Source: Microcystis aeruginosa NIES-843
Lineage (GTDB): Bacteria > Cyanobacteriota > Cyanobacteriia > Cyanobacteriales > Microcystaceae
Assembly (NCBI RefSeq): GCF_000010625.1
Contig: NC_010296.1
Coordinates: 5,010,001 to 5,042,000, forward strand
Reading direction: 5' to 3'
DNA: 32,000 nucleotides
Numbering within the stretch: the first letter of the stretch is position 1; every line of letters begins with the position of its first letter. The notes below the pieces were generated by a model. It was not told the DNA's origin. It did not search any database and was given only the letters and a program-made list of their open reading frames with translations. Of this stretch, positions 4,900-31,520 are shown piece by piece. The position numbers were made by a program, and so were the translations under genes.

Positions 4900-4902
4900 T
4901 TT

Positions 4903-4948
4903 CAGTTATCAGTTATCAGTTATCAGTTATCAGTTATCAGTTATCAGT
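4903..4948. repeat. Tandem heptamer (CAGTTAT) x6.6
   Basis: Perfect tandem units start at 4903, 4910, 4917, 4924, 4931 and 4938, plus a partial unit. The array begins 4 nt after the rpoB stop. Confidence 0.95.
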
Positions 4949-5152
4949 GAGAAGTCAGGAGTCAGTCCCGATGAAAAAATTTTCACCCCCACAGATGAAA
5001 GAGGTTTCTTTCCCTACACCCCACACCCTACACCCTCTTTCCAGTCAGGAGACAGGAGAGAATTTTCAAGGAAAAAGCCAAAAAAAGGACAGTAAAGTAA
5101 AAATTTGCCTATTCCCCGTTCTCTATTCCCTGTTTCCTGTTCCCTTTTCTAA

Positions 5153-5190
5153 CTGATAGCTGAATGCTGATGGCTGATAGCTAATAGCTG
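5153..5190. repeat. Degenerate heptamer array CTGATAG/CTGAATG/CTGATGG/CTGATAG/CTAATAG, inverse partner of 4903-4948
   Basis: The reverse complement of CAGTTAT, phased as CTGATAA, differs from these units mainly by A->G. The array ends 22 nt before the rpoC2 ATG. Confidence 0.75.
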
Positions 5191-5212
5191 TTTACTTGTT
5201 ACCCGGATCGAG

Positions 5213-9435: not shown

Positions 9436-9634
9436 GGGTTGGCTGAATAAATCTAAAAACCTTGTTGGGTAAGACTTTTAGACTTTTTGTCAATCAAAAA
9501 GTACCTGGCATGGGAGTGATCAGGGGGAAAATTCCGGGACTTTTTCCCTGAAAATTAGGTAATTGGCCACCTCAAAACCGGTAAAACCCCACACCCCACA
9601 CCCTGCCCCCAGGAAAAACTTTTTCAGCAGACCC
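9436..9634. mobile_element. MITE copy A (GGGTTGGCTGAATAA ... TTTTTCAGCAGACCC)
   Basis: About 15-bp terminal inverted repeats. Flanked by the direct repeat TAAGTA (9430-9435 and 9635-9640). About 90 percent similar by eye to copies at 10750-10921 and 21412-21623 in the opposite orientation. No coding capacity. Confidence 0.8.
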
Positions 9635-9750
9635 TAAGTAGCCTATACTCAACGGATTTAGTATCACCTGAGTTTGGCCATAAAAGAAGGCAGCCTTTTT
9701 TGTCAACCGGAAAGGAGACAAAGTTAAGATTTTAAGAATTTTCTCTCAAG

Positions 9751-14977: not shown

Positions 14978-14984
14978 TCAGTCA

Positions 14985-15139
14985 GGGAACAGGGATTAGG
15001 GGATAGGGGATAGGGAAATGGGGAAATGGGGAAATGGGGAAGTTTCAACTAATACCCCAAAACCCCAACACCCCACACCCCACACCCCACACCCCACACC
15101 CCACACCCTACACCCACGAAAAACTTTTTCAGCAAACCC
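14985..15139. repeat. G-tract / (CCCCACA)x5 composite fused to a solo MITE end (GAAAAACTTTTTCAGCAAACCC)
   Basis: GGGGAAATGGGGAAATGGGGAAATGGGG, then CCCCACA x5, then a terminus nearly identical to the right end of MITE copy A, followed by TAAATA. Fills the ABC-hlyD spacer. Confidence 0.8.
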
Positions 15140-15158
15140 TAAATATAGGAGAATCCCC

Positions 15159-16928
15159 ATGAACGGTAATTCTAACAACGGTCAAAAGGGCAACGGCAAC
15201 GCTAAAAGCGATGAACTGACCCAAGCGGGTAAAAACGTGGCTACTACCACGAAAAATAAAAGTATTACCCCTTCTTTACCCACTTTCAGCCCACCGGAAC
15301 AATCGGTGATCTTGAAACAATCACCCATTTGGTCGCGGACGATTATCTGGACATTAATGAGTGTCACCACTGCCGCTTTAATTTGGTCGGCGTTCGCCAA
15401 AATCGAGCAGGTGGTGGGCGCCCAAGGACAACTTAAACCCCAGGGGAAAGTGCAAGAAGTACAAGCACCGGTGAATGGGGTAGTACAGTTCGTGAAAGTG
15501 AAAGACGGCGATCGAGTTAACAAAGGTGATGTACTGGTTTTAATGGATTCCAGTGCCTCGCAAGTGCAGTTAGAATCCTTGAGAAAAATTCGCACCAGTG
15601 CTGAGAAGGAAAATCAATTCTATCGTCTCTTAATGGCGCAGGATCTGACACCGGCAGCAGTGGAAAGTTCGATCGCTCAATTAAAATTACCGAGTGAAAT
15701 CGCCGATTTAGCCCGTAATCGTGCCGCTTTGGTGACAGAAAATCAACTTTATCAAGCACAGGTCAGTGAAGGTGCTTCTAGCTCTGCTTTACAAGGGGAT
15801 GAATTAGCTCGTTTAGGGGCTGCTCGACGGGAGGCCAATTCTCGACAAGCGGCCGCTAGATTGGAAATGGAACAACTAGAAAAACAATTGGCCCAAACTA
15901 GGGTACAGTTGGCCGATGCCCGCTCGCAATTAATCAAAGATCGCTTAGTCTTAGAAGAAATTAAGACTCGTAATGCCAATTCGATGAAACAGGGCCAAGA
16001 AAGCTTGGATATCGAGCGTAATATTCTTAAGGATATTGAACCCTTGGGGGATGAAGGAGCGATCGCCCGTTATCAGATTAATAAGCAAAAACAATCGGTA
16101 ACCGATCGCCAGAATGAATTACAGCAGCAAGAGGCTAATGGCAAAATCGATCGAGAAAAACAAGAGAAAGAAGTACAAACCCGCATCGCCGAAATTTCCC
16201 GCCTGGAACAGGAAGAAAAGCGTTATTTCCTGTTGATCTCCCAAGCGCAAGAAAAGCTGATTAATACCACGGTAATCACGGAAAAAGATGTGCGCGATAA
16301 AATGGCGGACAATTACAAACGGATCGCTGAAATCGATAGTCAGATCAGTCGCATTATCATTGATAACAACAAGCGCATTGCCGAACTAGACAGTCAAATT
16401 AGTCAAGCACAACAGACCATTAAATATCAAAAAATTACCGCCCCCATCGATGGTGTGGTCTTTGATCTCAAGGCCCGGCCCGGGTTTGTTCCCCAACCAA
16501 GTCAAGCGGAAGCATTATTAAAACTTGTTCCCGATGGCTGTCCCACCGAGGTGAAAGATGCCGCTAAAGGTTGTTTAGTGGCAGAGGTGGACGTGACTAA
16601 CCAAGACATCGGTTTTGTGCGCGTGGGACAAAAAGCCGATATTCGCATTGATTCCTTTTCCTACAGTGAATACGGCGATATTAAGGGAGAAGTAATCTCG
16701 ATCGGTTCCGATGCTTTACCTCCCGACGAAAATCACCGTTTTTATCGGTTCCCCGTCCGGGTACGCTTGAACAGTCAAGAGTTAGTTTTGAAAAATCAAT
16801 CCACTCTACCGCTGCAATCGGGGATGTCCGTGAGTGTCAACATCAAAGTCAATGAAAATCGCACCGTTTTGGGACTATTTACCGATATGTTCAATAAACA
16901 GGTGGATACTCTCAAACAAGTCCGTTAA
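15159..16928 (+). CDS. HlyD-family type I secretion membrane-fusion (periplasmic adaptor) protein
   Basis: One N-terminal TM helix ([23 protein letters not shown]), a lipoyl-like hairpin ([29 protein letters not shown] ... [12 protein letters not shown]), a long coiled coil and a C-terminal beta-barrel. ATG 15159 has AGGAG 8 nt upstream. The track start at 15018 lies inside the repeat. Confidence 0.88.
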
Positions 16929-17905: not shown

Positions 17906-18055
17906 CCTTTTAAACGGGATTGAGGATGAGGGGGTCTTAGCCAGCTATTTTAGCTATTTCTGGTTGCTTAGAGATAATCTTCAGAATATTAATCGATTCC
18001 TAGGAGAAAAAATTCTTCTAGAATGATAAGTAAATATACGAGAGGAATTATACTC

Positions 18056-18337
18056 ATGTCTGCTGCGAAGTTTCAAACAGCCGCTTCATTATCCGATCGA
18101 GAGCTAGAAATACTCGATTTAGTGGCTAATGGTTTAACTAATCAAGAAATCTCGGAAAAGCTAGAGATTAGTAAGCGTACCGTTGATAATCATATTAGTA
18201 ATATCTTGACGAAAACAAAAACCGATAATCGGGTGGAATTGGTGCGTTGGGCATTGCATTGGGGTAAAGTTTGTCTTGATGATATTAATTGTTGTATCCT
18301 TCCTTCCCCAGCGCCGACTGATGATCAGGTTTCCTAA
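18056..18337 (+). CDS. Stand-alone LuxR/GerE-type HTH transcriptional regulator
   Basis: LSDRELEILDLVANGLTNQEISEKLEISKRTVDNHISNILTKT is a canonical GerE HTH with no receiver or ligand domain. ATG 18056 has GAGAGG 10 nt upstream. The alternative start at 18023 (track) cannot be excluded. Confidence 0.85.
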   Translation: MSAAKFQTAASLSDRELEILDLVANGLTNQEISEKLEISKRTVDNHISNILTKTKTDNRVELVRWALHWGKVCLDDINCCILPSPAPTDDQVS

Positions 18338-18872
18338 ACTTCTGGGACTTTTTCTTGCGGTTAATATCATCAGTCTGGGGGGATGTAGTGATGCGGGTTT
18401 TGTCACCCCTCCCCAACAGCTTTTAGGAAATACTTTAAATACCCCTTCCTCTGAAGATAATCCCCGTTTTAACTACGATGGTCGTTATCTGGTCTTTGCC
18501 TCCGATCGCAGGGGACAACGAACGATTTATTTATTCGATCGAGTGGCTAATCGTTTAGTTCCCCTGCCGGGGTTAAATCAAGCAAAAACCTATCAAGATC
18601 AACCGGATATTAGTGCCGATGGTCGCTATATTGTTTATGTGTCGGAACAGTCCGGTAAACCCGATATATATATTTATGATCGACAAACTCTGCAAGCAAA
18701 AAATATCACCGAAAATATTTTAGGAGAAGTGCGTCGTCCGACGATTAGTGGCAACGGTCGTTTTATTGCTTTTGAAAGTAATCGTTTCGGTCAATGGAAT
18801 CTGGAAATATTCGATCGAGGTGGCGAAATTTCTCCTTCTTTACCCCCGATCAATTCTTCCCCGTCCCGATAG
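18321..18872 (+). CDS. Small lipoprotein with TolB-like PD40 beta-propeller repeats
   Basis: Signal peptide plus lipobox (MIRFPKLLGLFLAVNIISLGGC). Three PD40-like repeats (DGRYLVFASDRRG, DGRYIVYVSEQSG, NGRFIAFESNRFG). The start overlaps the luxR-type stop by 17 nt. The track start at 18276 is upstream in the same frame. Confidence 0.75.
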   Translation: MIRFPKLLGLFLAVNIISLGGCSDAGFVTPPQQLLGNTLNTPSSEDNPRFNYDGRYLVFASDRRGQRTIYLFDRVANRLVPLPGLNQAKTYQDQPDISADGRYIVYVSEQSGKPDIYIYDRQTLQAKNITENILGEVRRPTISGNGRFIAFESNRFGQWNLEIFDRGGEISPSLPPINSSPSR

Positions 18873-19279: not shown

Positions 19280-19403
19280 TAGGTATTCTTGATAAGCTAA
19301 ACGGCGCTTAACCTGCATGATCCAACAGCTATAACCCTTTTGGAGTCTATATCGGTGATCCGAAGTAAAAGCCGTTTAGCTTACTTTCCACAGTCAAGGG
19401 TAG

Positions 19404-19769
19404 TTATGATCGATCATTCATTTGATAGATGGTTTCGTGACTGAGAAATTCTTGACTGGCTCTTTTCAGACGACCTGCTATTTGTTCCGGACTATGATAA
19501 TTTTTCAATCCTTTTTTCACCAACTCTAAGGCCGACTCGCTGACATTTTTAAAGGGTTGTTTGGCATTTTTTTGGTGCGTCTCGCTTTGAGCTTGTGCTG
19601 TGTCAGGTAGATAGCAGCCGAGGGAACTTTGATTCCTTCTTAATTCTCGTGATATTGTGCTTTGATGACATCCGAGCCAGACGGCCATTTGCCGTTGAGA
19701 TAAATTTCCCTCTTGACTAAGTTAGTAGAGCAAGTTTCTTTGTTCTATGTTAAGATGTTGTCGGCTCAT
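19404..19769 (-). pseudogene. IS30-family transposase, N-terminal HTH fragment with an in-frame stop, DDE domain missing
   Basis: Minus-strand reading MSRQHLNIEQRNLLY*LSQEGNLSQRQMAVWLGCHQSTISRELRRN...SPEQIAGRL...SHETIYQ matches the IS30 transposase N-terminus. There is an in-frame TAA at codon 16. Similarity ends after about 120 codons, whereas full-length enzymes are about 320-380 aa. Confidence 0.75.
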
Positions 19770-19859
19770 TTTTGGGTCTGATTTGTTGTTGTTAATGATC
19801 AGACAGTACCTGATGAGCCTTTCTTTTTCAACTCTTGAGGTTGATGCGTTTCATTTTTG

Positions 19860-20030
19860 AATTGACGATTTTTTTGACATCCTCACCGCCGTAAACGGAC
19901 GGTGATTCCCAAACCTCACGATTTAGGTTTCTGCTTCTTTCCCTTGCGGGGTTCCGCACCTGCCTTAACAGATTTACTCTGTTCTGGTCTTATGGTCGCT
20001 CTACAGACTGACACCGCAAGCCCTGCGGCC
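19860..20030 (-). ncRNA. Putative omega-RNA (reRNA) scaffold of the TnpB element; boundaries guessed
   Basis: In characterised TnpB systems the guide RNA scaffold overlaps the 3' end of tnpB and runs to the right end. The conserved hairpin at 19883-19905 lies where the terminal stem is expected. No covariance model was run. Confidence 0.3.
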
Positions 20031-21185
20031 AAAATATTTTTACTGGCGTTAATATCTCGGTCATGGTGTGTCCCACAGTCTGGACAGTCCCATTCTCGAA
20101 TATTTAACGGCATTTTCTCAGCAATATACCCGCAATTACTACACCTTTTAGAGCTAGGAAACCATCTATCTATTTCGATGTAATTTCTGCCGTACCAACG
20201 GCATTTATAGGCTAATTGTCGGGTGATTTCTCCCCAGCTAACGTCAGATATTGCCTGAGATAATTTCGGGTTTTTGACCATATTCTTGACGGCTAAATTC
20301 TCAACCACAATCGTTTGGTTTTCACGAACTAATTGAGTGGTTAGCTTGTGTAAATGGTCTTTTCTGTTATCGGTGATTCGAGCGTGAATCTTGGCTACTT
20401 TGATTCTCGCTTTTTCCCGATTTTTTGACCCTTTCTGTTTTCGAGAAAGACTTTTAGATGCTCTTCGCAGTCTCCGATAATGCTTTTTAAAATGCTCAGG
20501 ATTAGATACTTTGTCACCATCGCTGGTAATGACAAGGCTACTAATTCCTAAGTCAATTCCAATGGCTTTATCTGTTACTGGTAATGGCTTAATCGTTGGG
20601 TCATCAAATCTTATTGAGATATGCCAACGTCCTGAAGGATGTAATCTGACTGTTACTGTGCTTGGTTCACAGCTTTCTGGGATGTGTCTTGACCATCGAA
20701 TAGGTAAAGGTTCTGTGCATTTAGCTAAATAGATTTGTCTGTCTTTAATTGTAAAAGCAGATTTGGTAAATTCGGCACTTCCTCCCTGATGTTTTTTCTT
20801 AAAGTTAGGATACTTAGTACGACCAGCAAAGAAATTAGTGAAAGCTGTTTGTAAATGTCTTAACCCTTGTTGTAAGGGTACACAGCTTACTTCATTGAGA
20901 AAGTTTAATTCTTCTTGCTTTTTCCAATCGGTTAGCATTGAAGAAGTTTGAGCGTAGCCTACTCTTTCTTGTCTTTCGTACCATGCTTGTGTTCTGACAT
21001 GGAGAGCTTTATTGTAAACTAATCTTACACAGCCCAAAGTGCGCCGCAATAGCGACTCTTGTTCGGGTGTGGGGTAAAATCGAAACGAATAGGCTTTTTC
21101 CATACCTCACATTTTAGCATATATTTCGTAAACGATGCTCATATTTAACAGTAAAGCCGTCGTAGAACGACGGGGTTTCAGACCC
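19870..21185 (-). mobile_element. IS200/IS605-family tnpA-less (IS1341-like) element carrying tnpB; ends approximate
   Basis: The tnpB ORF is flanked by subterminal hairpins: CCGTCGT-AGA-ACGACGG at 21157-21173 (left-end side) and TCACCG(C)CCG-TAAA-CGG(A)CGGTGA at 19883-19905 (right-end side). There are no inverted terminal repeats, as expected for this family. Confidence 0.7.
19916..21103 (-). CDS. tnpB: TnpB (OrfB) RNA-guided endonuclease, apparently intact
   Basis: 395 aa. N-terminus MEKAYSFRFYPTPEQ, RuvC-I AIGIDLGISS, RuvC-II TIVVENLAVKNM, zinc finger CSNCG...CPDCG and RuvC-III HDRDINASKNI. Confidence 0.9.
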   Translation of the reverse strand: MEKAYSFRFYPTPEQESLLRRTLGCVRLVYNKALHVRTQAWYERQERVGYAQTSSMLTDWKKQEELNFLNEVSCVPLQQGLRHLQTAFTNFFAGRTKYPNFKKKHQGGSAEFTKSAFTIKDRQIYLAKCTEPLPIRWSRHIPESCEPSTVTVRLHPSGRWHISIRFDDPTIKPLPVTDKAIGIDLGISSLVITSDGDKVSNPEHFKKHYRRLRRASKSLSRKQKGSKNREKARIKVAKIHARITDNRKDHLHKLTTQLVRENQTIVVENLAVKNMVKNPKLSQAISDVSWGEITRQLAYKCRWYGRNYIEIDRWFPSSKRCSNCGYIAEKMPLNIREWDCPDCGTHHDRDINASKNILAAGLAVSVCRATIRPEQSKSVKAGAEPRKGKKQKPKS

Positions 21186-21331
21186 AAATTTTCGATGAAG
21201 GAGGGGCGGCTTTTATGGCTGACGGTTATGCCAGAGCGAGGCAAGGATTTGGTGTTTGTATTGGACTCGGTGGGCCAGGTGTGACCAACAGGGTGACGGC
21301 GATCGCATCCGCACTGAGCGATACCGACTAG
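21182..21331 (+). pseudogene. Remnant of a thiamine-diphosphate-dependent enzyme gene (acetolactate-synthase-like N-terminal Pyr domain)
   Basis: Translation ...IFDEGGAAFMADGYARARQGFGVCIGLGGPGVTNRVTAIASALSDTD* matches the conserved HE-x-gA-x-MAdGYAR-x-G-x-GVC-x-GPG-x-TN-x-IA block of ThDP enzymes. Only about 50 codons are present, with no N-terminus and no PP domain. Confidence 0.65.
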
Positions 21332-21411
21332 GGGGCGAAATTACAACCACAAGGCACATCCTTGGCAATAAAGTGTATAAGTTAATTTGGGCTGCAACTA
21401 TAGGATAATTA

Positions 21412-21623
21412 GGGTCTGCTGAAAAAGTTTTTCCTAGGGGCAGGGTGTAGGGTGTGGGGTGTGGGGTGTGGGGTTTTACCGATTTTGAGGGGGTCAATTA
21501 CCTAATTTTCAGGGAAAAAGTCCCTGAATTTACCCCTGATCACTCCCATATCTGGTACTTTTGGATTTCAAAAAAGTCTAAAAGTCTTATCCAGCAAGGT
21601 TTTTAGATTTATTCAGCCGGCCA
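21412..21623. mobile_element. MITE copy C (full length, same orientation as copy B)
   Basis: GGGTCTGCTGAAAAAGTTTTTCC ... TTTATTCAGCCGGCCA, flanked by TAATTA (21406-21411 and 21624-21629). It ends 38 bp upstream of the GH13 start codon. Confidence 0.8.
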
Positions 21624-21661
21624 TAATTAGGAAGAAAAAGTTGAGGTTATAAAGAATAATC

Positions 21662-23551
21662 ATGTCTAGAACGCTAGTTGAAGCAGCAGCACCTCAAGAA
21701 CTGAGGTTGGCAGACTTAAAGCCCCGTGGACGGGTTAATCCAAGTCCTGCAACCTGGAGAGACCAGATTTTATATTTTCTCCTACCAGATCGCTTCAGCG
21801 ATGGTGGAGAAGGTGGTCGAACACTATTCGATCGCTCCAATCCATCGACATTCAGGAAGAATGATAAAAAACAATGGATGGCTGGCGGCAAAATATTTCA
21901 GGGAGGAACGATCGCCGGAATAAAAAGTAAATTGGACTACCTGCAAAATTTAGGCGTTACCACTCTTTGGATTGCCCCTGTTTGCAAACAAAGAAAAGAT
22001 TTAGAAACTTATCACGGTTACGGAATTCAAAATTTCTTAGAAATCGATCCTCGTTTTGGTACTCGTCAAGAATTGAGAGATTTAGTAGATGCTGCCCACA
22101 CCAAGGGTATGTATGTTCTATTAGATATTATCTACAATCATTCGGGAAATAACTGGTTTTACAATGTAGGTGGAAGACCAAAAACTACTGAAAAGTACCG
22201 TTTTGCTCCACCTTATCCAGTTCATGGGTGGCGTTCTGATACTGGAAGTAGTATTCCTATTTCAAGCATTTCTCCCTCTGATTTAGAAGACGGTGTTTGG
22301 CCCCAAGAATTCCAAGATTTAGACTGGTATACCAAAGCTGGAGAGATTTGCAAATGGGATCCCGAGGGTTGGGAAGAGCCGCTTCATCCAGATAATGAAT
22401 TTCGACGAGGTGATTTTTCCGACCTTAAAGACCTCAATCTCAATAGAAGTGATGTTTTAAATGCTGTTATCAAAGTCTATCAATACTGGATTGCTCTCAG
22501 CGATTGTGATGGATTTCGGATTGATACTGTCAAGCACGTTTCTTGGGAAGCATCCCGTAACTTCTGTGGTGCAATTCACGAATATGCCGAGTCGATTGGC
22601 AAGGAAAACTTCTTGCTTCTTGGTGAGGTTACTGGTGGTGCTGATATGGCGCGCAACTATCTAGAAATCTTTGGTCGCAATCTAGATGCTGTTTTAGATA
22701 TCGGCGAACCACCACAAAAACTAGCAGGAATGACTAAAGGGTTTAGAGAACCAAGCGATTTTTTTAATCAGTTTGCAGGTCATGATTCTCTTGGTAGTCA
22801 TCGTGAAACAGGACGCTATCACGTCTCAATTTTAGATGACCACGATATGGTGGGACGTGGTAAAAATCGATTTGCAGCTAATAATCCTAATTTAGAACAA
22901 GTTGCCCATGCAGTAGGTGTGCAGTTGACTACTCTAGGCATACCCTGTATTTATTACGGTACTGAGCAAGCATTTGATGGTAAAGAATCTTATCACGACT
23001 TTAGTATCGAACCACGCGATAGCAACGGCAAAATTCCTTTCGATGATCGCTATATTCGAGAGTCCATGTTTGGTGGAACTTTTGGAGCTTTTGAAACCGA
23101 AAATTGCCATTTCTTTGATGAAAATCATCCTACTTATTTACGTATTGCCGCGATCGCTCTTATCCGTAATGGAGATAACAAAATCGGTCTAGCTTTACGT
23201 CGCGGTCGTCAGTATTTAAGGGAAACATCTATCTTAGGAAGACCTTTTAATATACCAGCAAGAGAAGAGTTGGTAGCCTGGTCTCGCATTCTCTTTGACC
23301 AAGAGGTTCTGATAGCAGTTAATACTAATGGGACTGCGGTCAGAGGTGCAGATATAACTGTAGATGGCTCTTTAAGTCCTATTGGAGGACAAATGACCTA
23401 TCTTTACAGGAGCGACTGGGCTGATAGTCAATTACATACCCCACCCACAGATCAAACTGTAAACATTATTAGTAATGGCAGTCGTGCCACTGTCAAAATC
23501 GATTTACCGCCTGCTGGAATGGCTATCTTAACCCACTTTCCGTCAAATTAA
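21662..23551 (+). CDS. GH13 (alpha-amylase family) glycoside hydrolase, cytoplasmic
   Basis: All four GH13 regions are present: I VLLDIIYNHSG, II DGFRIDTVKHV (nucleophile Asp), III LLGEVTGG (acid/base Glu), IV ILDDHDM. The N-terminus has LPDRFSDG. No signal peptide. Confidence 0.88.
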   Translation: MSRTLVEAAAPQELRLADLKPRGRVNPSPATWRDQILYFLLPDRFSDGGEGGRTLFDRSNPSTFRKNDKKQWMAGGKIFQGGTIAGIKSKLDYLQNLGVTTLWIAPVCKQRKDLETYHGYGIQNFLEIDPRFGTRQELRDLVDAAHTKGMYVLLDIIYNHSGNNWFYNVGGRPKTTEKYRFAPPYPVHGWRSDTGSSIPISSISPSDLEDGVWPQEFQDLDWYTKAGEICKWDPEGWEEPLHPDNEFRRGDFSDLKDLNLNRSDVLNAVIKVYQYWIALSDCDGFRIDTVKHVSWEASRNFCGAIHEYAESIGKENFLLLGEVTGGADMARNYLEIFGRNLDAVLDIGEPPQKLAGMTKGFREPSDFFNQFAGHDSLGSHRETGRYHVSILDDHDMVGRGKNRFAANNPNLEQVAHAVGVQLTTLGIPCIYYGTEQAFDGKESYHDFSIEPRDSNGKIPFDDRYIRESMFGGTFGAFETENCHFFDENHPTYLRIAAIALIRNGDNKIGLALRRGRQYLRETSILGRPFNIPAREELVAWSRILFDQEVLIAVNTNGTAVRGADITVDGSLSPIGGQMTYLYRSDWADSQLHTPPTDQTVNIISNGSRATVKIDLPPAGMAILTHFPSN

Positions 23552-23627
23552 AGGAGAATAGAAAGGAAAATAAAAATATATTACGCTCCCAAAGTCTATT
23601 GTTCACCTACCAAAGAGTCCATAAATT

Positions 23628-26126
23628 ATGTCTCAGAATGAGTCCAACGTTAACAATCAAGACACGTCATTTGCTTTCGGTACTGATATTTTAGGTCGCT
23701 ACTTCTGTAACACCCTAGAGGAGGCAGCAAAAAGCAATGAAGCCAAACCATTTGATGTGGTGGTGATCGGATCGGGAATGTACGGTTCGTATATTGCGAG
23801 TAAGCTCTACCACTGGAGTAAAAATAAAAAGCAACTTGGAGAGGAAAAAAGGTTAAAAATCCTCATCCTTGAAGCTGGTCCTTACATCGTACACGAGCAT
23901 ATCGAAAACCTTCCACCTAAAACTGGCATTTTTGATGAAAATATCGATCACCCACACATGAAGTCCCCATATGTATGTCATGTTCGTCGAGCAGGGATGG
24001 GTGAGGAGTTTTTTGGGGAAGTAAAAAAGCATAGCTACTGTGTTGGGGGTAAATCGTTGACGTGGGGGAAGTGGTCGCCACGTCTTACCGATGAAGATTT
24101 AGCGTCTTGGCCAAAAGAGCTTAGAGATTTCCTATATGAGAACTATAAAGAGGTAGAAGACGAGACAGGTGTTTCTGACTACTCAGACCTTATAAATGGG
24201 ACTCTTTTTAAGGGTCTGAAGAAATTTCTAGAGGAAAAGCTAAATTCACCAGATCTAAATCATCTCAAACTTAAAGATCCACCTGTGGCTGTCGCGGCAA
24301 ATAGCACCCGATCTGGAGTGTATAGCCCTGATGCTTTCAGTAGTCTTGGTAGGCTCTTACAAAATATACGGATTGAATCCCAGTACGATGATGTGCCGAA
24401 GCCCAATGATCCCATTTGGAAATCTAAATCAATCTTTCTTGTTCCGAATACGTTTGTATACAAGCTTGAAACCGATAAGGGTTCTGTCTCTCGCATACAT
24501 GTAGTCGATAGCAACTCTCAAAAAACAAGCTCTTTTGAACTTTTAAGCAATTGCGAGGTGATCTTGGCTGGTACGGCTGTAGAATCTACCAGGCTTGTAC
24601 TCAACTCATTTCCCAGATCGGACTCTTTAAAAGAGAACCAAGAGTTAATCGGGCGTAATCTGATGGGGCATCTGTTCAGTGCGGTAACAGTTCGGATTAA
24701 GCGAGAAGCACTTGGATTCCTTAAGGAGGATGTTCTTGAGTCTGCCCTTTACCATCTACAGGGCTACAGCGAACGTTTCAAGAAAAGTTACCATTTCCAA
24801 TTCCTCTGTAGCTCTGATCCTGGCTTTGATGTTTTCACGACTCTCTATAAAATGTTTTACGATTATGAGGAGCTTGTCGATACATTAGGGTCGCAGGATC
24901 AGGAATGGGTCACTCTATTGATATTCACGGTTTCTGAGGTGCAAGGAAAGCCAAAGGCTCCACTTTACACAGAAGGCTCGAATTGGATGAATTTAAGTAA
25001 GGATCAAATCGAAGTATTCGGTGAAGTGAAATATGCTAAGCCCTACTTGAAATGGGAAAGTTCACCAGAAGATGAGGAATTCTGGGACGAGGTTCATTCA
25101 ACTTTATTTGACTTTCTTTCATCACTGGTATCCTTTGGTGCCATCGAATACCAAGATCCGAATGATGCTAAAAAATGGACACCAGAGAAGCCGACACAAT
25201 TCGACCCATACCAAAAGACTGAGGCATTTTGGAATTCACGCCATGAATCGGGTACGCTATGGATGGGTGAAAATCCTGATGAATCTGTAACAGATCTAGA
25301 CGGCAAATTACACCACATTCAAAATGTTTACTGCGCTGACCAAGCGATTTTTCCTACTGTTGGTTCTGCCAATCCTGTACTCACAGGACTAACCCTATGC
25401 CGTAAGATTGCGGATTCAATTATTAAACGCCACATCTCATCTGAATTTGTCGAGGAAGAAGACGCGGATTCAATTATTGAACGCCACATCTCATCTAAAT
25501 TTGTCGAGGAAGAAGACTTTGAAATTCTTTATCGAGGTGACTTCAAATCAGATGGTTGGAAATTTTTGGAATCAAATAAATCAGGTGCCAAAAACTTCTT
25601 TGATATTAAAGATAGTTTGCCTATATTGGGTGCGGGAGTTTCCGATAAAGATGTCAAAATGGGTGCTCTTTGTTATACACGCAAAAAATTCAAAAATTTC
25701 ATCTTAAAGTTAGAATGGAAAGCATTTGCCATCGAAGCAAACTCTGGTATTTTTCTAAGGAGGCCAGAACCTAAAGGTGAATCTTTCTATGACAATCTCA
25801 TCGAAGTTCAAATTGACGAGACTGCCTATGACTACAAAAAAAAGATATACGGAAGTCCTTTACATAAAACAGGTGCAGTCTATGATATATTTCCTGCTCA
25901 ACGATGGGCTACTAAGGTGATTAGTCCTCGAAATTCAGAGCATCCTGGATATTGGAACAGCTGTGAAATCACCGTACAGGATAATACGATTGAGGTTAAA
26001 CTCAATGACAAAATAGTTAGTGCGGGAACTTTTTCTGAATCCGTGAACCTCGAAGGTTTCATTGCCTTGCAATGTCATACAGAGGTCGTTCAGTTTCGTA
26101 ATATTCGGATCAAGGAACAACCCTAA
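23628..26126 (+). CDS. Fusion protein: pyranose-oxidase-like GMC FAD oxidoreductase (aa ~40-600) + DUF1080 / 3-keto-disaccharide-hydrolase-like domain (aa ~640-832)
   Basis: FAD Rossmann motif FDVVVIGSGMYGSYIASKL...LEAGP. The GMC C-terminal block HESGTLWMGENPDESVTDLDGKLHHIQNVYCADQAIFPTVGSANPVLTGLTL resembles pyranose 2-oxidase. The C-terminal domain carries the DUF1080 pattern (FILKLEWK...NSGIFLRR, IEVQIDE, KTGAVYDI, YWNSCEITVQDNTIEVKLND, GFIALQCH..VQFRNIRIKE). Confidence 0.8.
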   Translation: MSQNESNVNNQDTSFAFGTDILGRYFCNTLEEAAKSNEAKPFDVVVIGSGMYGSYIASKLYHWSKNKKQLGEEKRLKILILEAGPYIVHEHIENLPPKTGIFDENIDHPHMKSPYVCHVRRAGMGEEFFGEVKKHSYCVGGKSLTWGKWSPRLTDEDLASWPKELRDFLYENYKEVEDETGVSDYSDLINGTLFKGLKKFLEEKLNSPDLNHLKLKDPPVAVAANSTRSGVYSPDAFSSLGRLLQNIRIESQYDDVPKPNDPIWKSKSIFLVPNTFVYKLETDKGSVSRIHVVDSNSQKTSSFELLSNCEVILAGTAVESTRLVLNSFPRSDSLKENQELIGRNLMGHLFSAVTVRIKREALGFLKEDVLESALYHLQGYSERFKKSYHFQFLCSSDPGFDVFTTLYKMFYDYEELVDTLGSQDQEWVTLLIFTVSEVQGKPKAPLYTEGSNWMNLSKDQIEVFGEVKYAKPYLKWESSPEDEEFWDEVHSTLFDFLSSLVSFGAIEYQDPNDAKKWTPEKPTQFDPYQKTEAFWNSRHESGTLWMGENPDESVTDLDGKLHHIQNVYCADQAIFPTVGSANPVLTGLTLCRKIADSIIKRHISSEFVEEEDADSIIERHISSKFVEEEDFEILYRGDFKSDGWKFLESNKSGAKNFFDIKDSLPILGAGVSDKDVKMGALCYTRKKFKNFILKLEWKAFAIEANSGIFLRRPEPKGESFYDNLIEVQIDETAYDYKKKIYGSPLHKTGAVYDIFPAQRWATKVISPRNSEHPGYWNSCEITVQDNTIEVKLNDKIVSAGTFSESVNLEGFIALQCHTEVVQFRNIRIKEQP
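25410..25517 (+). repeat. 54-bp in-frame tandem duplication (2 copies, 2 mismatches) in the interdomain linker
   Basis: GCGGATTCAATTATT(A/G)AACGCCACATCTCATCT(G/A)AATTTGTCGAGGAAGAAGAC x2 encodes ADSIIKRHISSEFVEEED / ADSIIERHISSKFVEEED. Confidence 0.95.
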
Positions 26127-26167
26127 AATAATCAGAACAAAAAGAAAGATGGATAGATCATCGAAGA

Positions 26168-29100
26168 TCAATCACAAAGATGGCGATCATTTTCACTCAC
26201 ATTGGGATTTGCCCTTAGATAATCATGCACCCAATTACAACCGTACATCAATGGATTAAGGGTAAGAACCTGCTCCTTGTTCCACAAAATGACTGTCTTG
26301 TCTTCATTTGCTGAGGCAATAGTTTGACCATCAGGACTGAAGGCTATTGACCAAAAGCGACCGCTATAGCCATTCAGAGTCGTCAATAAAGTGCCATCTG
26401 GTTTCCAAAGCTTGATCGTCTTGTCCCAGCTTGCTGAGGCAATGGTCTGACCATCGGGACTGAAGGCAACAGAGAAAACGACAGCACTATGACCTTTAAG
26501 GGTTGTCAATAAAGTACCATCCAGTTTCCAAAGCTTGATCGTGTTATCTGCACTTGCCGAGGCAATCGTCTGACCATCGGGGCTGAATGCCAATCCATAA
26601 ACTTGAGCAGTATGTCCTATAAGTGTCTTTAGGAGAACAGGCACCTGATCTGGCTTCACTCTCCAGAGTTTTACGGTATTGTCTGCACTTGTGGAGGCGA
26701 TTGTCTGACCATCGGGACTGAATGCCACTCCAAGAACCGCCGCTTGATGTCCTCTCAAGGTGGCGAGGAGTTGGGGCGTTTTTTGCCCTACATTCCAGAG
26801 CTTGACAGTATTATCCCAGGCTGCGGAGGCAACTGTCTGACCGTCGGGACTAAAGGCAACTTCCCAAACCACTGCTTGATGTCCTCTCAGGGTGGCAAGT
26901 AATCGAGGCTTCCCTCTACCTAAGTTCCAGAGCTTGACGGTATTATCTGCACTTGCGGAGGCAAGCCTCTGACCATCGGGACTGAAGGCGACTCCATAAA
27001 CCTGAGCGGTGTGTCCGCTGAGAGTTGCGAGCAGAGTGCCATCTCGCTGCCAAAGTTTGACCGTTTTGTCATCACTGGTCGAAGCAATGGTCTGACCATC
27101 GGGGCTGAATGCCACTCCAATCACTACGCCACTATGCCCTGTCAGCCTTGTTAACAAAGGGCTTTTCAGCCTCCAAAGCTTGACCGTTTTGTCATCACTG
27201 GCCGAAGCAATGGTCTGACCATCGGGGCTAAATGTTACTCCCCAAACACGATCGCTATGCCCACTGAGAGTTGCAATCAAAGTACCATCCCGCTTCCAGA
27301 GCTTAACAGTCTTGTCCCAACTACCTGAAGCGAGAGTCTGACTATCGGGGCTGAATGCTACTCCAGCAATCACTTCACTATGTCCTGTAAGGGTTGCCAG
27401 TAGAGCCGGCATTTTCCCTGTTTCTAGTTTCCAGAGTTTGATCGTTTTGTCCCAACTGGCTGAAGCCAGCATCTGACCATCAGGGCTGAACGCTACTCCG
27501 TTGACAATATCAGTGTGACCTGTGAGAGTCGTAATCAAGGTGCCATCTCGCTTCCAAAGTTTTACTGTCTTATCGTCACTCGCCGAGGCCAGTATTTGAC
27601 CGTCAGGACTAAAGGCAACTCCATTCACCACAGCAGTGTGACCTGCTAGAGTTGCAATTAAAGTGCCATCCTGTTTCCAGATTTTTACCGTCTTATCATC
27701 ACTCGCTGAAGCCAGCATTTGACCATCGGGACTGAATGCCACTCCCCTCACACCATCGCGATGTCCTACAAGGGTCTTTAGCAAAACAGGTGTCTTGCCC
27801 GCTTCTAGTTTCCAGAGTTTGATGGTTTTGTCTGTACTACCCGAGGCAATCGTGTGACCATCAGGACTAAACACAGCTTGCCAAATTCGATCGCTGTGTC
27901 CGTTCAGAGTTGCAATTAGAGTACCGTCTCGCTTCCAGAGTTTGATGATTTTATCACGACCCGCTGAGACGAGTATGTTACCGTCGGGGCTGAAGGCGAC
28001 GCTTTTAACTTCGTCGCGATCCAATGACAAACGATTGTATTCAAGAACGCCATAAACTGCCTGCCGTAAGACGGAATCTACCTGAGTTTTAGTCTCAGCG
28101 TCTGTTCCTCCTGTCCTGGATAATTTTTGCCAGGCCCGAATGGCCTCAATCAACGCATCTAACTTATTATTGGAGACAAAAAGTGCTTCTGAGGACGCAG
28201 TGATGGCTTGGATCTCGCTACGCGCTGAATTCTGCCATTGCCCCCAAGCGACTCCTGCTAAGATTAAGGCCCCTAGCAAGCCACCTGTGAGTCCTGAGAT
28301 CGTTAACTTTCGCCTGCGCTTTTGGGATTTCAGGTCGCGATCGCGCAGTGCCACACTTTGCTCAATCAATTCGCGATCGCTCGAACTCAGTTCATCAGCT
28401 CGATTCAGATACCAATATTCTGCATCGGTCAGAGGTTTACCCCGCAACAATGCCCCTTCATCCTGATGGCTGCGCTCCCACTGGTAGCGGTTTGCCCGCA
28501 GTTGCTCTTGCCAGAGGCGAAACTCTCGATCGAGCTGCATCCAATTCCTGAGTCGTTTCCAGCCCCCAATTAATGCCTCGTGAACAATTTCTACGGTTTC
28601 TTCTCCTGTAGAATCGTTGCGGTTGGTCACCACTAAGCGAGAGGAGGCTAAACGCACTACCAAGTCCCAGTTTTCGGGCTGCACGTCTTCCCGTGTAGCA
28701 GTACGCCGGCTATCGTCTGTCCCGGCACCGGGCTGCACTAATTGGATAAATACCCGTTGCGCTCGCTGTCGATCCTCTTCGTTCAGTTGAGCGTATACGA
28801 ATTCTGCGTGATTGGCCAGCGCTGCTTCTACGCCGCCAATCTGGTCATAAGCCTGATTGGTTAGCCATCCATCTCGCTGGTTTGACCACAATTGCGTGAG
28901 GGCAAATTCCAACAAGGGCAAACGCCCTGGCTGCTCATTCATGGCATGGATCAGCTTCTGGATTAACCCATCCTCTAATTTCACTTGCATTTGGGCGGCG
29001 GGCTTGGCAATCGCGGCTGGCAATTCTTCCCGGTTCATCGGCCCCAAAACCTGAATGGCACCTTGCAAGGCATCACTCAAGGGGCGGTAAGCCAGGGCAT

Positions 29101-30919
29101 AGCCGCAAAAGTCTGCTCGTAGGGTCAGAATCAGGGTGAACCCTGGAGCAAATTTCACGGCATTTAGTACAGTATCCAAAAAAGTCTGTCGCTCTGCCTC
29201 TGGACAAAGGGTATAGAGTTCTTCAAATTGATCGGCGATCAAAATCAGGCATATCCCTGAATTCTGCTGTTTAACCCACTCGATGAGGTGGGATAATCCC
29301 TGGTCGTCTTGCCGCAATAGCCGCTCTAGTTCTACTGCGTTAGCGAAGCTGTCGCTTTGACCTTCTGGGAGAGCATCGCCACACCCCTGTTGGGACTGAT
29401 GTAGAGAGACAAATTGAGCGATCGCAGGACACTGCGCCAACCCAGTTGCTAAGGCTTCAAACGGATTATTTCCTGGGCGGAACGAGACAATCTGTACAGA
29501 CGGCGAGCCTCGTTCCTTCATGCCGCTACTGCCTAATTCCTGACGCAAGCGCGGCACTAATCCCGCAAAGACGACGGATGATTTGCCACTGCCAGAAGCA
29601 CCAATCACCGCCACCAATGGCTTTTGTTTGACCGCCGCCAGCAGTGCCTGAGTTACCTGCTCCCGCCCAAAGAAGAACCGAGCATCTTCCTCCCGAAAGG
29701 CAAATAGACCGCGATAGGGACAGGTTGGCGTTCCTCCAAGCTGAATCCAAGTGGGAGGTTCAACGGCTAGATTTTGGCAAATCACGGGCAACCAAGACGC
29801 TGCTGGAAAATCATCTTCTAATCCTTGGAGCTTTCGACGCGCTTGCTGAACGGCAAGATAAAGCGGCAATTGCTCGATCGCAAATGCTGTCAGAAACTGC
29901 TGAAAGAACTCTTGTGCCACCCGATTGGGAATCGGTTCGCGCATGACAATCACTGTGGGAATGTGTAGTTTCTCCAGTGCTTGTGCCAAGCCTAATCCAT
30001 CACAAGAATTAAAAATAGCCAGCGTTAAACCCTTCTCGAGCGCGGTTTTCAGTGCCTCTTCTAACTGTGATATCGTCAAACTATTGTGGGTTGAATTCTC
30101 ATTAATATATATTCGACCCGTTTGTCCCTGGGTTTGACTGTGACCGGCAAAAAACAGGATATCCCACCCTTCAGGCTGCCATAATTGAGTATTGAACTCC
30201 TGGCGTGAGGGGTTGGCCAGGAACTTAACTGACCCATCCTGCAACCGCTGAAGTAAGCGGGTTTCTGTGGCTAAATCAATGCCAGAGCTATTGCCTAAGA
30301 CTGCTAAAATCCTGACTTTCTGGTCAGTTTTTGCTGACTTCAGAACATTTCGATAGTGGTACTCTGGTTGACTCAACGCCATTTCCGCTTGGGGATAATC
30401 CTCAAAGAAATGCCAGCGATGCCAGGGAAGAGAGCGCAATTCCAGATCGTTAGTTTCAATCATGACTCGGATGGGAGCGGATGAGTCGAGTCGCGATCGC
30501 AGTTGCAGTTCAATGGGGAGAAAACCCTCTGATTTCAGCCAAGTATTGATGCTTGCCTGTAGCTGCTGGCACAACTCATCAAAACTGACCTGAGAAATAT
30601 TGGTAATGCCTGCTTCACTGATTTCTAGTTCACCAACTTCTACGAGAGAAGCTGAAGATAGATGTCCTGGTTGGGATATTATGGGATGGCGTTGTCCGCC
30701 CGTAATGCGTTCAGTTTCGCTGCGCCCAAGGCGATCGCATAGTCCCCGATAAACAAGCTGCCAATTCCGATACAGTTCCCCTAAAGCGGGTGCGGCGGGC
30801 AACGTGCCGATAAATTGCTCTGGCCTCGGATTGCCGTCCGTCCATAATTGAACGGTAACTCGCGGAAATCCCTGATACAAATTCCCACTGCCTAGATTAA
30901 TAATCACTGACTTGTTCAT
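26168..30919 (-). CDS. CHAT (caspase-like) protease - STAND P-loop NTPase - single TM helix - 14x WD40 protein (NLR/Apaf-1-like architecture)
   Basis: The N-terminal ~390 aa have a CHAT-type His/Cys dyad context (ILFFAGHS ... LAIFNSCDG). Then come CPYRGLFAFREEDARFFFGRE, Walker A GASGSGKSS and Walker B-like LILIADQFEELYT, followed by a helical region. KRRRK precedes the hydrophobic LTISGLTGGLLGALILAGVAWGQW, which is followed by 14 WD40 blades (xAFSPDGQxxASxSxDKTxKLW). Confidence 0.85.
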   Translation of the reverse strand: MNKSVIINLGSGNLYQGFPRVTVQLWTDGNPRPEQFIGTLPAAPALGELYRNWQLVYRGLCDRLGRSETERITGGQRHPIISQPGHLSSASLVEVGELEISEAGITNISQVSFDELCQQLQASINTWLKSEGFLPIELQLRSRLDSSAPIRVMIETNDLELRSLPWHRWHFFEDYPQAEMALSQPEYHYRNVLKSAKTDQKVRILAVLGNSSGIDLATETRLLQRLQDGSVKFLANPSRQEFNTQLWQPEGWDILFFAGHSQTQGQTGRIYINENSTHNSLTISQLEEALKTALEKGLTLAIFNSCDGLGLAQALEKLHIPTVIVMREPIPNRVAQEFFQQFLTAFAIEQLPLYLAVQQARRKLQGLEDDFPAASWLPVICQNLAVEPPTWIQLGGTPTCPYRGLFAFREEDARFFFGREQVTQALLAAVKQKPLVAVIGASGSGKSSVVFAGLVPRLRQELGSSGMKERGSPSVQIVSFRPGNNPFEALATGLAQCPAIAQFVSLHQSQQGCGDALPEGQSDSFANAVELERLLRQDDQGLSHLIEWVKQQNSGICLILIADQFEELYTLCPEAERQTFLDTVLNAVKFAPGFTLILTLRADFCGYALAYRPLSDALQGAIQVLGPMNREELPAAIAKPAAQMQVKLEDGLIQKLIHAMNEQPGRLPLLEFALTQLWSNQRDGWLTNQAYDQIGGVEAALANHAEFVYAQLNEEDRQRAQRVFIQLVQPGAGTDDSRRTATREDVQPENWDLVVRLASSRLVVTNRNDSTGEETVEIVHEALIGGWKRLRNWMQLDREFRLWQEQLRANRYQWERSHQDEGALLRGKPLTDAEYWYLNRADELSSSDRELIEQSVALRDRDLKSQKRRRKLTISGLTGGLLGALILAGVAWGQWQNSARSEIQAITASSEALFVSNNKLDALIEAIRAWQKLSRTGGTDAETKTQVDSVLRQAVYGVLEYNRLSLDRDEVKSVAFSPDGNILVSAGRDKIIKLWKRDGTLIATLNGHSDRIWQAVFSPDGHTIASGSTDKTIKLWKLEAGKTPVLLKTLVGHRDGVRGVAFSPDGQMLASASDDKTVKIWKQDGTLIATLAGHTAVVNGVAFSPDGQILASASDDKTVKLWKRDGTLITTLTGHTDIVNGVAFSPDGQMLASASWDKTIKLWKLETGKMPALLATLTGHSEVIAGVAFSPDSQTLASGSWDKTVKLWKRDGTLIATLSGHSDRVWGVTFSPDGQTIASASDDKTVKLWRLKSPLLTRLTGHSGVVIGVAFSPDGQTIASTSDDKTVKLWQRDGTLLATLSGHTAQVYGVAFSPDGQRLASASADNTVKLWNLGRGKPRLLATLRGHQAVVWEVAFSPDGQTVASAAWDNTVKLWNVGQKTPQLLATLRGHQAAVLGVAFSPDGQTIASTSADNTVKLWRVKPDQVPVLLKTLIGHTAQVYGLAFSPDGQTIASASADNTIKLWKLDGTLLTTLKGHSAVVFSVAFSPDGQTIASASWDKTIKLWKPDGTLLTTLNGYSGRFWSIAFSPDGQTIASANEDKTVILWNKEQVLTLNPLMYGCNWVHDYLRANPNVSENDRHLCD
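26279..28015 (-). repeat. Array of 14 WD40-coding repeats (about 123-138 bp units) with high unit-to-unit identity
   Basis: The DNA motif GGTCTGACCATCGGG(A/G)CTGAA(G/T)GC recurs about every 126-135 bp on the + strand. Protein blades share GVAFSPDGQTIASASxDKTVKLW. Confidence 0.9.
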
Positions 30920-31520
30920 TTCAGGTAGTAAGGTAAGTTGGCTCTTCGTTACTTGTTATGGTTCGATAGGGGGGCATAAATCGACTAAATCCTTATCTGG
31001 CAAGAGACTTAATTGATTAGTTCGCTCTAGAGCAAAAACAATTGACAAAAATCGCTAAATGCCTTTCTATATAAGGGTTCCATCCCTTATAACCCCCGTC
31101 CATTGCATAACACAAACCGAAGAGCCGGTAAGTTTTGCCATCGGCGCATAATATAGATGTCAGCCCTTTCATCTTAATACAGGAAAACGGAAGAAAACTG
31201 GAGAATGCTTTAAATTTGGGAAGGGGGGGATGCGATACGCCCTGACAGCAAGGCTTTTCAGCTATCAGGAGAGTAAAGCTTTTCTCAAAATGTATCAGTG
31301 CGATACATCTTGTCCACAAAACCCAAGAGAGCCATCCAGAATTTAGAACCGTAAGTGTATAGGTTGATTTTGCTCACAACTACTAACGAGTGTAACGGTT
31401 CGCAGTCGTATGAGGTACATTATCACGGACTACAAACCAGTCTAAGCAAGGCTTTGCCTGTATCTCACTCAATTGCGTATCGCTATAACTGAATCGAGAT
31501 CTAACAAAAGGAGAAATTAC

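Follow-up and report, generated by a model that had tools for sequence, protein, structure and literature searches.

Results

The gene and the domains of its product

We analyzed a 32,000-nucleotide stretch of the genome of Microcystis aeruginosa NIES-843 (contig NC_010296.1, positions 5,010,001 to 5,042,000; here called the window). The subject of this report is a gene on its minus strand whose product carries, in this order, an N-terminal alpha+beta domain, a CHAT protease domain, an nSTAND1 nucleoside triphosphatase (NTPase), one transmembrane (TM) helix, a helical linker, 14 WD40 blades, and a tail with a pair of cysteines. The gene and its features are listed below in window coordinates, with the residues of the protein in parentheses; AF2 denotes AlphaFold2 models.

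26168..30919, minus strand: whole gene, 1583 amino acids (aa) plus stop, ATG start (BAG05289.1 / WP_012267785.1)
30470..30919, minus strand: N-terminal alpha+beta domain, corresponding to "EACC2," the constant component in Kaur et al. 2021 (1-150; AF2, alignments)
29735..30469, minus strand: CHAT caspase-fold protease domain (151-395; PF12770, AF2, Foldseek)
30140..30142, minus strand: codon of His260 (FFAGHS), candidate catalytic His
30002..30004, minus strand: codon of Cys306 (FNSCDG), candidate catalytic Cys
28325..29734, minus strand: nSTAND1 STAND-type AAA+ NTPase with helical and winged-helix parts (396-865; PF20703, AF2, Foldseek)
29576..29602, minus strand: Walker A, GASGSGKSS (440-448)
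29219..29248, minus strand: Walker B, LILIADQFEE (558-567)
28244..28306, minus strand: single Gly-rich TM helix (872-892), after KRRRK and before W.QW
28037..28243, minus strand: helical juxtamembrane linker from the TM helix to the first blade (893-961; AF2 helices)
26261..28036, minus strand: 14 WD40 blades in units of 41 to 45 aa (962-1553)
26171..26260, minus strand: C-terminal tail with C1561 and C1582 (1554-1583)

A first-pass annotation of this DNA had already described the open reading frame (ORF). Its coordinates, strand, and length held, and each motif that it quoted was found (FFAGHS starting at aa 256, FNSCDG at aa 303, CPYRGL at aa 400, GASGSGKSS at aa 440, and ADQFEELYT at aa 562). 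Profile searches for CHAT, STAND, and WD40 domains bore out the domain composition that it had proposed: PF12770 and PF20703 scored above their cut-offs, and Pfam marked 14 WD40 stretches. The product is identical to WP_012267785.1 of M. aeruginosa NIES-843, for which the existing annotation is a CHAT/nSTAND1 protein and which NCBI and UniProt name, under BAG05289.1 / WP_012267785.1, "CHAT domain-containing protein / WD-repeat protein." It clusters at ≥90% identity with others from several Microcystis taxa, 118 sequences in all. Its class is known from comparative genomics (Kaur et al. 2021, PMC8195603), and the gene, an annotated member of it, has an architecture that is not categorically new; the first-pass annotation had noted that caspase/AP-ATPase/WD40 combinations in cyanobacteria were known from such work. 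A literature search found no paper citing its accession numbers, and the transcriptome paper on Ma-LMM01 infection does not mention it.

A constant head with an apparently competent CHAT protease

Kaur et al. 2021 (eLife, PMC8195603) described a constant module of EACC2 plus caspase with a variable C terminus and defined nSTAND1 in the same work; the product of the gene belongs to their EACC2-caspase (CHAT) class. Residues 1 to 150 matched no Pfam model and are conserved in family alignments. The CHAT domain was recognized by PF12770, which scored 54.1 bits (cut-off 24) over residues 151 to 368. An AF2 model of residues 1 to 400 was confident (pLDDT 81, pTM 0.83) and placed strands at residues 3-8, 17-26, and 34-40 and helices at 44-76 and 113-143 of the N-terminal domain; a linker at about residues 65 to 97 is disordered (pLDDT <50 at 74-96) and varies between strains, also by an indel. 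The best Foldseek matches of this model in the PDB were all CHAT or separase-type proteases: Csx29 of Craspase stood at the top (8eey_B, E = 2.4e-10), with separases, a SAVED-CHAT filament, and DdvA (8rot_A, E = 4.6e-8) after it, the E values of these four kinds of match ranging from 1e-10 to 1e-7, and MALT1 and caspases came next.

Conservation was judged in an alignment of 109 full-length relatives of 56 to 98% identity. His260, in the turn after strand 254-258, and Cys306, just after strand 300-304, are invariant in all 109. They lie 46 residues apart, compared with 45 for the dyad residues H862 and C907 of DdvA (PMC11506125). On the alignment and the model, the CHAT domain is apparently competent as a protease.

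The first 395 residues are common to proteins with quite different C termini, at 51 to 63% identity; these are nSTAND1-TM-WD40, NB-ARC-WD40, CHASE2, and AAA_35 proteins and proteins with short tails.

The nSTAND1 switch

PF20703 (nSTAND1) matched residues 401 to 821 at 400 to 403 bits against a cut-off of 27.1, in a domain that opens with a CPYRGLFAF..D..FFFGRE lead-in. In the Walker A motif the residues G, S, G, S, and G and the final S are invariant and K446 is present in 108 of 109 relatives; D563, E566, and E567 of the Walker B motif are present in 109 of 109. The claim of the first-pass annotation that the His/Cys dyad and the Walker motifs are intact is therefore sound, since these residues are invariant or changed in a single sequence. 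Like the protease, the NTPase is conserved and apparently competent. Residues 396 to 960 were modeled by AF2 with a pLDDT of 84.9, and Foldseek matched the NTPase best to ORC/Cdc6 AAA+ proteins (E = 3e-7) and, lower, to Avs4 (E = 2.5e-4), Avs3, and SAMD9, as would be expected of a STAND NTPase from its modeled fold. Pfam returned no NB-ARC match in the protein, and by its profile the NTPase is nSTAND1, not NB-ARC. The domain content, with dyad and Walker motifs intact, makes an effector-switch-repeat logic of the STAND/NLR kind a reasonable reading of the sequence.

A conserved transmembrane helix between switch and sensor

Between the NTPase and the WD40 blades lies the hydrophobic segment LTISGLTGGLLGALILAGVAW (residues 872 to 892), directly after a KSQKRRRK cluster. 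Across the 109 relatives the 19-residue Kyte-Doolittle mean reaches ≥1.6 in 99%, and Lys plus Arg number 6.5 per 15 residues upstream of the segment versus 1.6 downstream, where W.QW supplies an aromatic belt. The helix is present in 54 of 54 nSTAND1-type proteins (≥880 aa), even in members of 33 to 43% identity, and absent from 5 of 5 NB-ARC-WD40 paralogs with the same head. AF2 drew it as part of one continuous helix of about 70 residues (~846 to 915). Two Rivularia proteins (locus L047, 10001-12574; locus L049, 10001-12568) stop just after the TM helix as tail-anchored CHAT-nSTAND1 proteins, and membrane anchoring is therefore kept even where WD40 blades are missing. A Microcoleus protein (L020, 393-3404) has lost all WD40 blades in frame, but its TM helix and linker remain, as does the end of its C-terminal tail.

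The two sides of the helix also differ in cysteine content, which is 0.33% in the ~690 residues after it versus 1.08% before it. Exactly two post-TM cysteines, a conserved C-terminal pair, occur in 81 of 108 relatives. In the Microcystis protein these are C1561 and C1582, in the tail motif [GA]C.W..DYL...DR.LC; they form a candidate disulfide, and the WD40-less Microcoleus protein retains the tail end DRHFCD with the second cysteine. Four full-length NB-ARC-WD40 paralogs without a TM helix have 14 to 17 cysteines (2.1 to 3.9%) in their WD40 regions.

The positive-inside rule, the conservation of the helix, and the depletion of cysteine after it indicate an N-in/C-out orientation, which we consider probable: the protease and the NTPase would lie in the cytoplasm, which the NTPase requires, and the propellers in the periplasm or possibly the thylakoid lumen. 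With one pass through the membrane, both flanks could not be cytoplasmic. The same EACC2-CHAT head is fused in paralogs to CHASE2, an established extracytoplasmic sensor, which fits a receptor. On these sequence features the WD40 propellers are most likely extracytoplasmic, and the nSTAND1-type subclass very probably consists of membrane-spanning receptors with an external sensor, a point that the present analysis adds to what was known of the class. The first-pass annotation had listed the TM helix correctly and had overlooked its topological consequence, modeling instead a cytosolic sensor like that of Apaf-1; the conserved helix separates the WD40 blades from CHAT and NTPase. A search of the literature for experiments proving WD-repeat proteins to be periplasmic turned up only an annotation label, that of Slr1410.

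A homogenized WD40 array

Besides the 14 stretches marked by Pfam, a separate count of FSPD-anchored units of 41 to 45 aa also gave 14 blades. The first-pass annotation had spoken of two seven-bladed propellers; its blade number stands, and the blades presumably group into two propellers of seven. Blade-to-blade identity averages 61%, and at the DNA level the WD40 arrays appear as tandem repeats of 123/132 bp. Highly repetitive WD40 sensors are known from fungal NLRs of the HET-E/NWD type. The positions that vary most from blade to blade, predicted by our own mapping to be top-face hotspots, are the residue preceding GH, two alternate positions in strand a, and the residue that precedes the tetrad Asp. 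Highly repetitive WD40 proteins show variability at such hotspots (Hu et al. 2017, PMC5587647), and the present array resembles them in its near-identical blades and hotspot variability. When seven Microcystis strains are compared, 18.9 columns per 100 aa vary in the WD40 region taken as a whole and 6.5 in CHAT, the least variable part, a difference of about threefold.

The family and its partner genes

A search with residues 1 to 960 scored 8000 candidates, 7259 of them with E ≤1e-10. The best 120 matches were mostly 1500 to 1600 aa long, and all those named by organism were cyanobacterial. With one genome taken per species, at least 570 encoding stretches were counted. For neighborhood work 79 loci were retained, again cyanobacterial wherever an organism was named, with up to 4 paralogs per genome. 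Each feature of the EACC2-caspase class was reproduced on the fetched loci: the constant N-terminal alpha+beta domain with its caspase/CHAT domain, the variable C terminus (STAND or CHASE2), and the mostly cyanobacterial distribution.

Kaur et al. (PMC8195603) tied a sigma factor of the extracytoplasmic function (ECF) group together with DUF1822 to the EACC2-caspase class, in the "majority of neighbourhoods," and proposed that a stimulus induces autopeptidase activation, followed by a transcriptional step; the association points to a transcriptional output rather than to death only. When neighbors were clustered in our loci, DUF1822 (285 bits) was found within 7 kb in 32 of 79, in the listed cases mostly just upstream on the same strand, and a protein of 450 to 540 aa was found in 25 of 79, usually upstream of DUF1822. 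The latter, named sigma-like here following Kaur et al. 2021, matched nothing in Pfam or NCBIfam at default thresholds. The sigma-like family (alignment A5; L027 6766-8211, L034 6726-8240, L038 7320-8945, and others) is large, and its sole resemblance to sigma region 4 is a C-terminal LYY..G.SLKEIA..LGMTSWDQARR segment.

Partners were counted where a locus had ≥3 kb of sequence upstream. One or both genes lay upstream on the same strand in 22 of 49 nSTAND1-type loci, the other 27 being without the pair; both CHASE2-type loci (L073 and L074) had both genes, and the NB-ARC-type loci had neither (0 of 5). As far as gene neighborhoods can be read, the ancestral genomic partners of the nSTAND1-type subclass point to sigma-factor control. 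The sigma-like/DUF1822 neighborhood is not shared by the Microcystis copy and is not obligatory in the class.

Two candidates for a small EACC1-type TM partner upstream were rejected: the upstream gene in ENA contig L001 is divergent and 140 bp away, and the only same-strand ORF in the window, at 31017-31319, has no Pfam match and overlaps a gene remnant. CHAT-CHASE2 paralogs and DUF928 genes recur near the nSTAND1-type gene (flanks of L010, L039, L009, L019, L052, L060, and L061) and may form a second conserved module. Large ORFs resembling hemagglutinin repeats occur in some of these CHAT-CHASE2/DUF928 loci and in others.

Inheritance of the gene and rearrangement of its flanks

Seven loci of different genera, that of Microcystis M131 among them, have a convergent amylase-family gene immediately downstream of the CHAT-nSTAND1 gene. 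The gene order in Nostoc parmelioides (L027) and Aliinostoc (L034) is sigma-like gene, DUF1822, CHAT-nSTAND1 gene, amylase gene. The retention of this neighbor across genera argues for vertical descent followed by loss of the sigma-like and DUF1822 partners, and the gene appears to be vertically inherited. The host-like density of HIP1 (GCGATCGC) given in the first-pass annotation was confirmed, with 5 sites in the gene (1.05/kb) versus 15 in the window (0.47/kb).

The flanks are variable. ENA contig L001 is 99.9% identical to window positions 21410-31126 and then diverges, which places a strain-specific breakpoint at 31126; only ~22 first codons of an AP_endonuc_2 (sugar-phosphate isomerase-like) gene remain at 31059-31126, and this gene is intact in L001. 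An IS605-type TnpB/OrfB element (19916-21103, minus strand) is a strain-specific insertion, its flanks 19385-19879 and 21195-21412 being contiguous in M131 (L007). The sugar genes downstream of the CHAT gene have been swapped: NIES-843 carries an amylase (629 aa) and then a GMC-oxidoreductase/3-keto-disaccharide-hydrolase fusion (832 aa) at 21662-26126 on the plus strand, the fusion holding a near-duplicated linker (SIIKRHISSEFVEEED / SIIERHISSKFVEEED), and in M131 the gene directly beside the CHAT gene is an amylase-family gene of 45% identity, beyond which lies a GMC-like gene of 23% identity. The accessory context claimed for the locus by the first-pass annotation is thus borne out for its surroundings, but with the amylase neighbor kept, "accessory" fits the flanks better than the gene.

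On the other side, a lysozyme-type ORF on the plus strand begins at 31473, at a distance of 554 bp from the start codon of the gene, and runs off the window; it is present in NIES-843 and M131. The ORF has no Pfam match. Its 94%-identical full-length ortholog in M131 matched phage lambda lysozyme (1am7/3d3d, E = 7e-37) and a PHROG endolysin, and the phage-type lysozyme gene reported nearby on the other strand is thereby confirmed. The lambda-R-type domain of this protein is C-terminal and follows an N-terminal part of ~100 aa. In bacterial gasdermin-protease systems the gasdermin gene is adjacent to that of the protease. No gasdermin gene was present among the neighbors here (GMC-oxidoreductase/3-keto-disaccharide hydrolase, amylase, lysozyme, and AP_endonuc_2), no gasdermin-specific model having been run.

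Several other features of the window were noted. A repeat of ~200 bp occurs at 9441-9636 and ~21410-21611, 89% identical and in opposite orientation, with one copy adjoining tRNA-Pro and the second lying upstream of the amylase gene; it may be an element resembling a miniature inverted-repeat transposable element. An ABC exporter with N-terminal cyclic-nucleotide-binding and C39 peptidase domains is followed by an HlyD-family gene (12008-16928, plus strand), a pair that looks like bacteriocin-type export and might be regulated by cyclic nucleotides. At 18023-18872 (plus strand), an ORF with a LuxR/GerE helix-turn-helix domain (104 aa) overlaps, in another frame, the start of an ORF with PD40 beta-propeller repeats (198 aa, TTG start), and the two may be a frameshifted or fused regulator-propeller gene. 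The spacer between rpoB and rpoC2 (4900-5212) contains a heptamer run, (CAGTTAT)x7, and other short tandem motifs. rpoC1 does not lie between rpoB and rpoC2 in the window, an arrangement that is probably ordinary, the same split being found in Synechocystis.

Discussion

Relation to known systems

The Apaf-1 apoptosome shares with the Microcystis protein a STAND-type NTPase followed by WD40 propellers as the sensor, two in Apaf-1 and presumably two here, and a caspase-fold protease as the output. Apaf-1 differs in being soluble, in using NB-ARC, and in recruiting a separate caspase via CARD, whereas the Microcystis protein has nSTAND1, carries its protease in cis at the N terminus, and has a TM helix; Pfam detected no CARD or death-like domain in it. 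The Apaf-1 parallel drawn by the first-pass annotation, with its cytosolic sensor, is not supported, given the conserved helix between NTPase and WD40 blades and the nSTAND1 assignment. A soluble design closer to Apaf-1, EACC2-CHAT-NB-ARC-WD40 without a TM helix, exists in another paralog class (e.g., L070). Avs and other bacterial NLR-like proteins have the same effector-STAND-repeat layout and a weak similarity of NTPase fold (Avs4 and Avs3). Their TPR-like repeats detect phage proteins in the cytoplasm, whereas the sensor here is WD40 and probably external.

The proposed topology has counterparts of its own. Receptor Ser/Thr kinases of the PknD type have an external beta-propeller, one TM helix, and a cytoplasmic enzyme. 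With these kinases and with CHASE2 receptors the Microcystis protein would share the plan of cytoplasmic enzyme, one TM helix, and external sensor; its output would be a STAND-gated protease in place of a kinase or cyclase.

Among CHAT proteases, Craspase (type III-E, in which the TPR-CHAT protein Csx29 cuts Csx30) offers the closest solved fold and is likewise an allosterically gated CHAT protease; its targets have been described as putative anti-sigma factors. It is gated by the Cas7-11/crRNA complex, not by a STAND NTPase, and is without TM helix and WD40 blades. DdvA-DdvS of Myxococcus xanthus (PMC11506125) is alike in being a single-pass membrane CHAT protein coupled to an ECF sigma factor, one that switches on CBASS and CRISPR defense. 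DdvA is inverted, however, with TPR-CHAT periplasmic and a zinc anti-sigma (ZAS) domain cytoplasmic; it has no NTPase and no WD40 blades, and its CHAT domain is without the three-helix motif. Pfam detected no TPR or ZAS domain in the Microcystis protein, whose CHAT domain is N-terminal and on the K/R-rich side of the TM helix.

A proposed model for transmembrane STAND-gated proteolysis

We lean, with slightly better than even confidence in the model as a whole, toward the product of the gene being a single-pass membrane receptor-protease in which a CHAT protease is gated by a STAND NTPase across the membrane. A ligand would bind the variable top faces of the external propellers, and the long TM/juxtamembrane helix would relay the signal across the membrane. 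nSTAND1 would then bind or exchange NTP and oligomerize at the membrane, and the clustered CHAT domains would be activated and cut a cytoplasmic target or themselves. In relatives with the upstream pair (about half), the output would likely run via the sigma-like and DUF1822 proteins, with proteolysis freeing a sigma factor on the pattern of Craspase-Csx30 and DdvA-DdvS. In the Microcystis copy, where the pair has been lost in cis, the substrate could be a target in trans, the protein itself (autoproteolysis), or a lethal substrate. The purpose would most likely be the sensing of an invader or of another external protein cue.

Several observations weigh against this model or its parts. The place of the dyad was judged from the secondary structure of the model and from spacing, not from residue-level superposition, and PDB sequence searches with residues 1 to 960 and with the head profile gave nothing useful, fold comparison alone having worked. 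The cysteine contrast is partly a single character, not 14 independent observations, because the blades are homogenized. Kaur et al. (PMC8195603) class STAND C termini as "intracellular," and their in silico study has neither a TM helix nor an external WD40 array in its text. In the array itself, unlike in the highly repetitive WD40 sensors to which it was compared, substitutions between strains are not enriched at the hotspots (9/42 versus 85/476, p = 0.54). PADLOC matched no defense model, its only hits being HEAT-ARM_XIII, driven by the WD40 repeats, and the P-loop hit mad3 (E = 0.0035). The sigma step has its own difficulties: Sigma70_r4 matched weakly in 3 of 8 members of the sigma-like family (E 0.014 to 0.04), the profile of that family found no match among PDB sequences, sigma-like and DUF1822 genes are absent from the window and the Microcystis contigs, and the best 120 of 1112 profile hits for DUF1822 included none from Microcystis. 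A sigma output may therefore not apply to the Microcystis copy, and we regard it as unlikely in Microcystis itself.

A wholly cytosolic, Apaf-1/Avs-like abortive-infection switch is the obvious alternative, with WD40 blades binding a phage or danger protein, the STAND module oligomerizing, CHAT killing the cell, and the hydrophobic helix serving as a peripheral tether or being buried. Its order of effector, NTPase, and repeats is that of Avs and Apaf-1, its fold resembles those of Avs4 and Avs3, neither its dyad nor its Walker motifs are disrupted, the same head occurs in soluble NB-ARC-WD40 paralogs, and the intracellular placing of STAND C termini by Kaur et al. (PMC8195603) agrees with it. 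Yet a 21-residue Gly-rich hydrophobic helix in 54 of 54 proteins, flanked on opposite sides by a K/R cluster and an aromatic belt, is hard to square with such a switch, as is a post-TM region depleted of cysteine apart from one conserved pair, unlike that of the soluble paralogs. The NTPase is not of the NB-ARC type, the sigma-like/DUF1822 pair was found with TM-bearing types only, and no meaningful family was recognized when the protein was scanned with PADLOC and NCBIfam, repeats and P-loop apart. The identity as an anti-phage STAND protein suggested by the first-pass annotation found no backing in PADLOC beyond this WD40/P-loop noise. We judge the cytosolic switch decidedly unlikely.

The same membrane receptor-protease could also serve a purpose other than immunity, as a vertically inherited system of envelope, cell-cell, or colony signaling in which a cue leads to proteolysis and then to transcription. 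HetF, a developmental protease of the CHF type, and cell-surface signaling by ECF sigma factors provide comparators. Vertical descent as seen in the amylase-family neighbor across genera, host-like HIP1 density, a locus with no recognizable defense island and no PADLOC match, and relatives coupled to a sigma-like gene all suit such a role. The presence of more than one paralog in several genomes (as many as 4 in the loci fetched), the variable C terminus on a constant head, and the homogenized repeats with variable hotspots do not, being hallmarks of conflict systems in the account of Kaur et al. (PMC8195603). A purely non-immune role seems unlikely, if worth keeping in view; immune and non-immune purposes are not mutually exclusive. 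If the Microcystis copy had become a functionless orphan once its sigma-like and DUF1822 partners were lost, this would explain why these are missing in cis and among the best DUF1822 hits and why the flanks are rearranged. Such an orphan is highly improbable, because the 4.75-kb ORF is intact and conserved at ≥90% identity in the 118-member Microcystis cluster, and CHAT, with all catalytic residues in place, is its most constrained part; stand-alone copies are moreover common, as the 27 of 49 nSTAND1-type loci of other genera without the pair attest.

Implications

In animals, plants, fungi, and bacteria alike, STAND/NLR receptors are textbook examples of intracellular sensors. We tentatively suggest, and ourselves hold doubtful, that the >7000 cyanobacterial nSTAND1-TM-WD40 proteins may be "outside-in NLRs," with an extracytoplasmic, diversifying WD40 sensor, NTPase oligomerization and CHAT proteolysis inside, and, in the ancestral operon, a protease that would free a divergent sigma factor by cutting DUF1822. 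If true, this would extend NLR logic to transmembrane signaling and would tie the family in with the theme of CHAT proteases and sigma factors represented by Craspase and DdvA. Microcystis forms toxic blooms and lives under heavy phage pressure, and such a receptor could bear on phage sensing, colony behavior, and programmed cell death in this organism.

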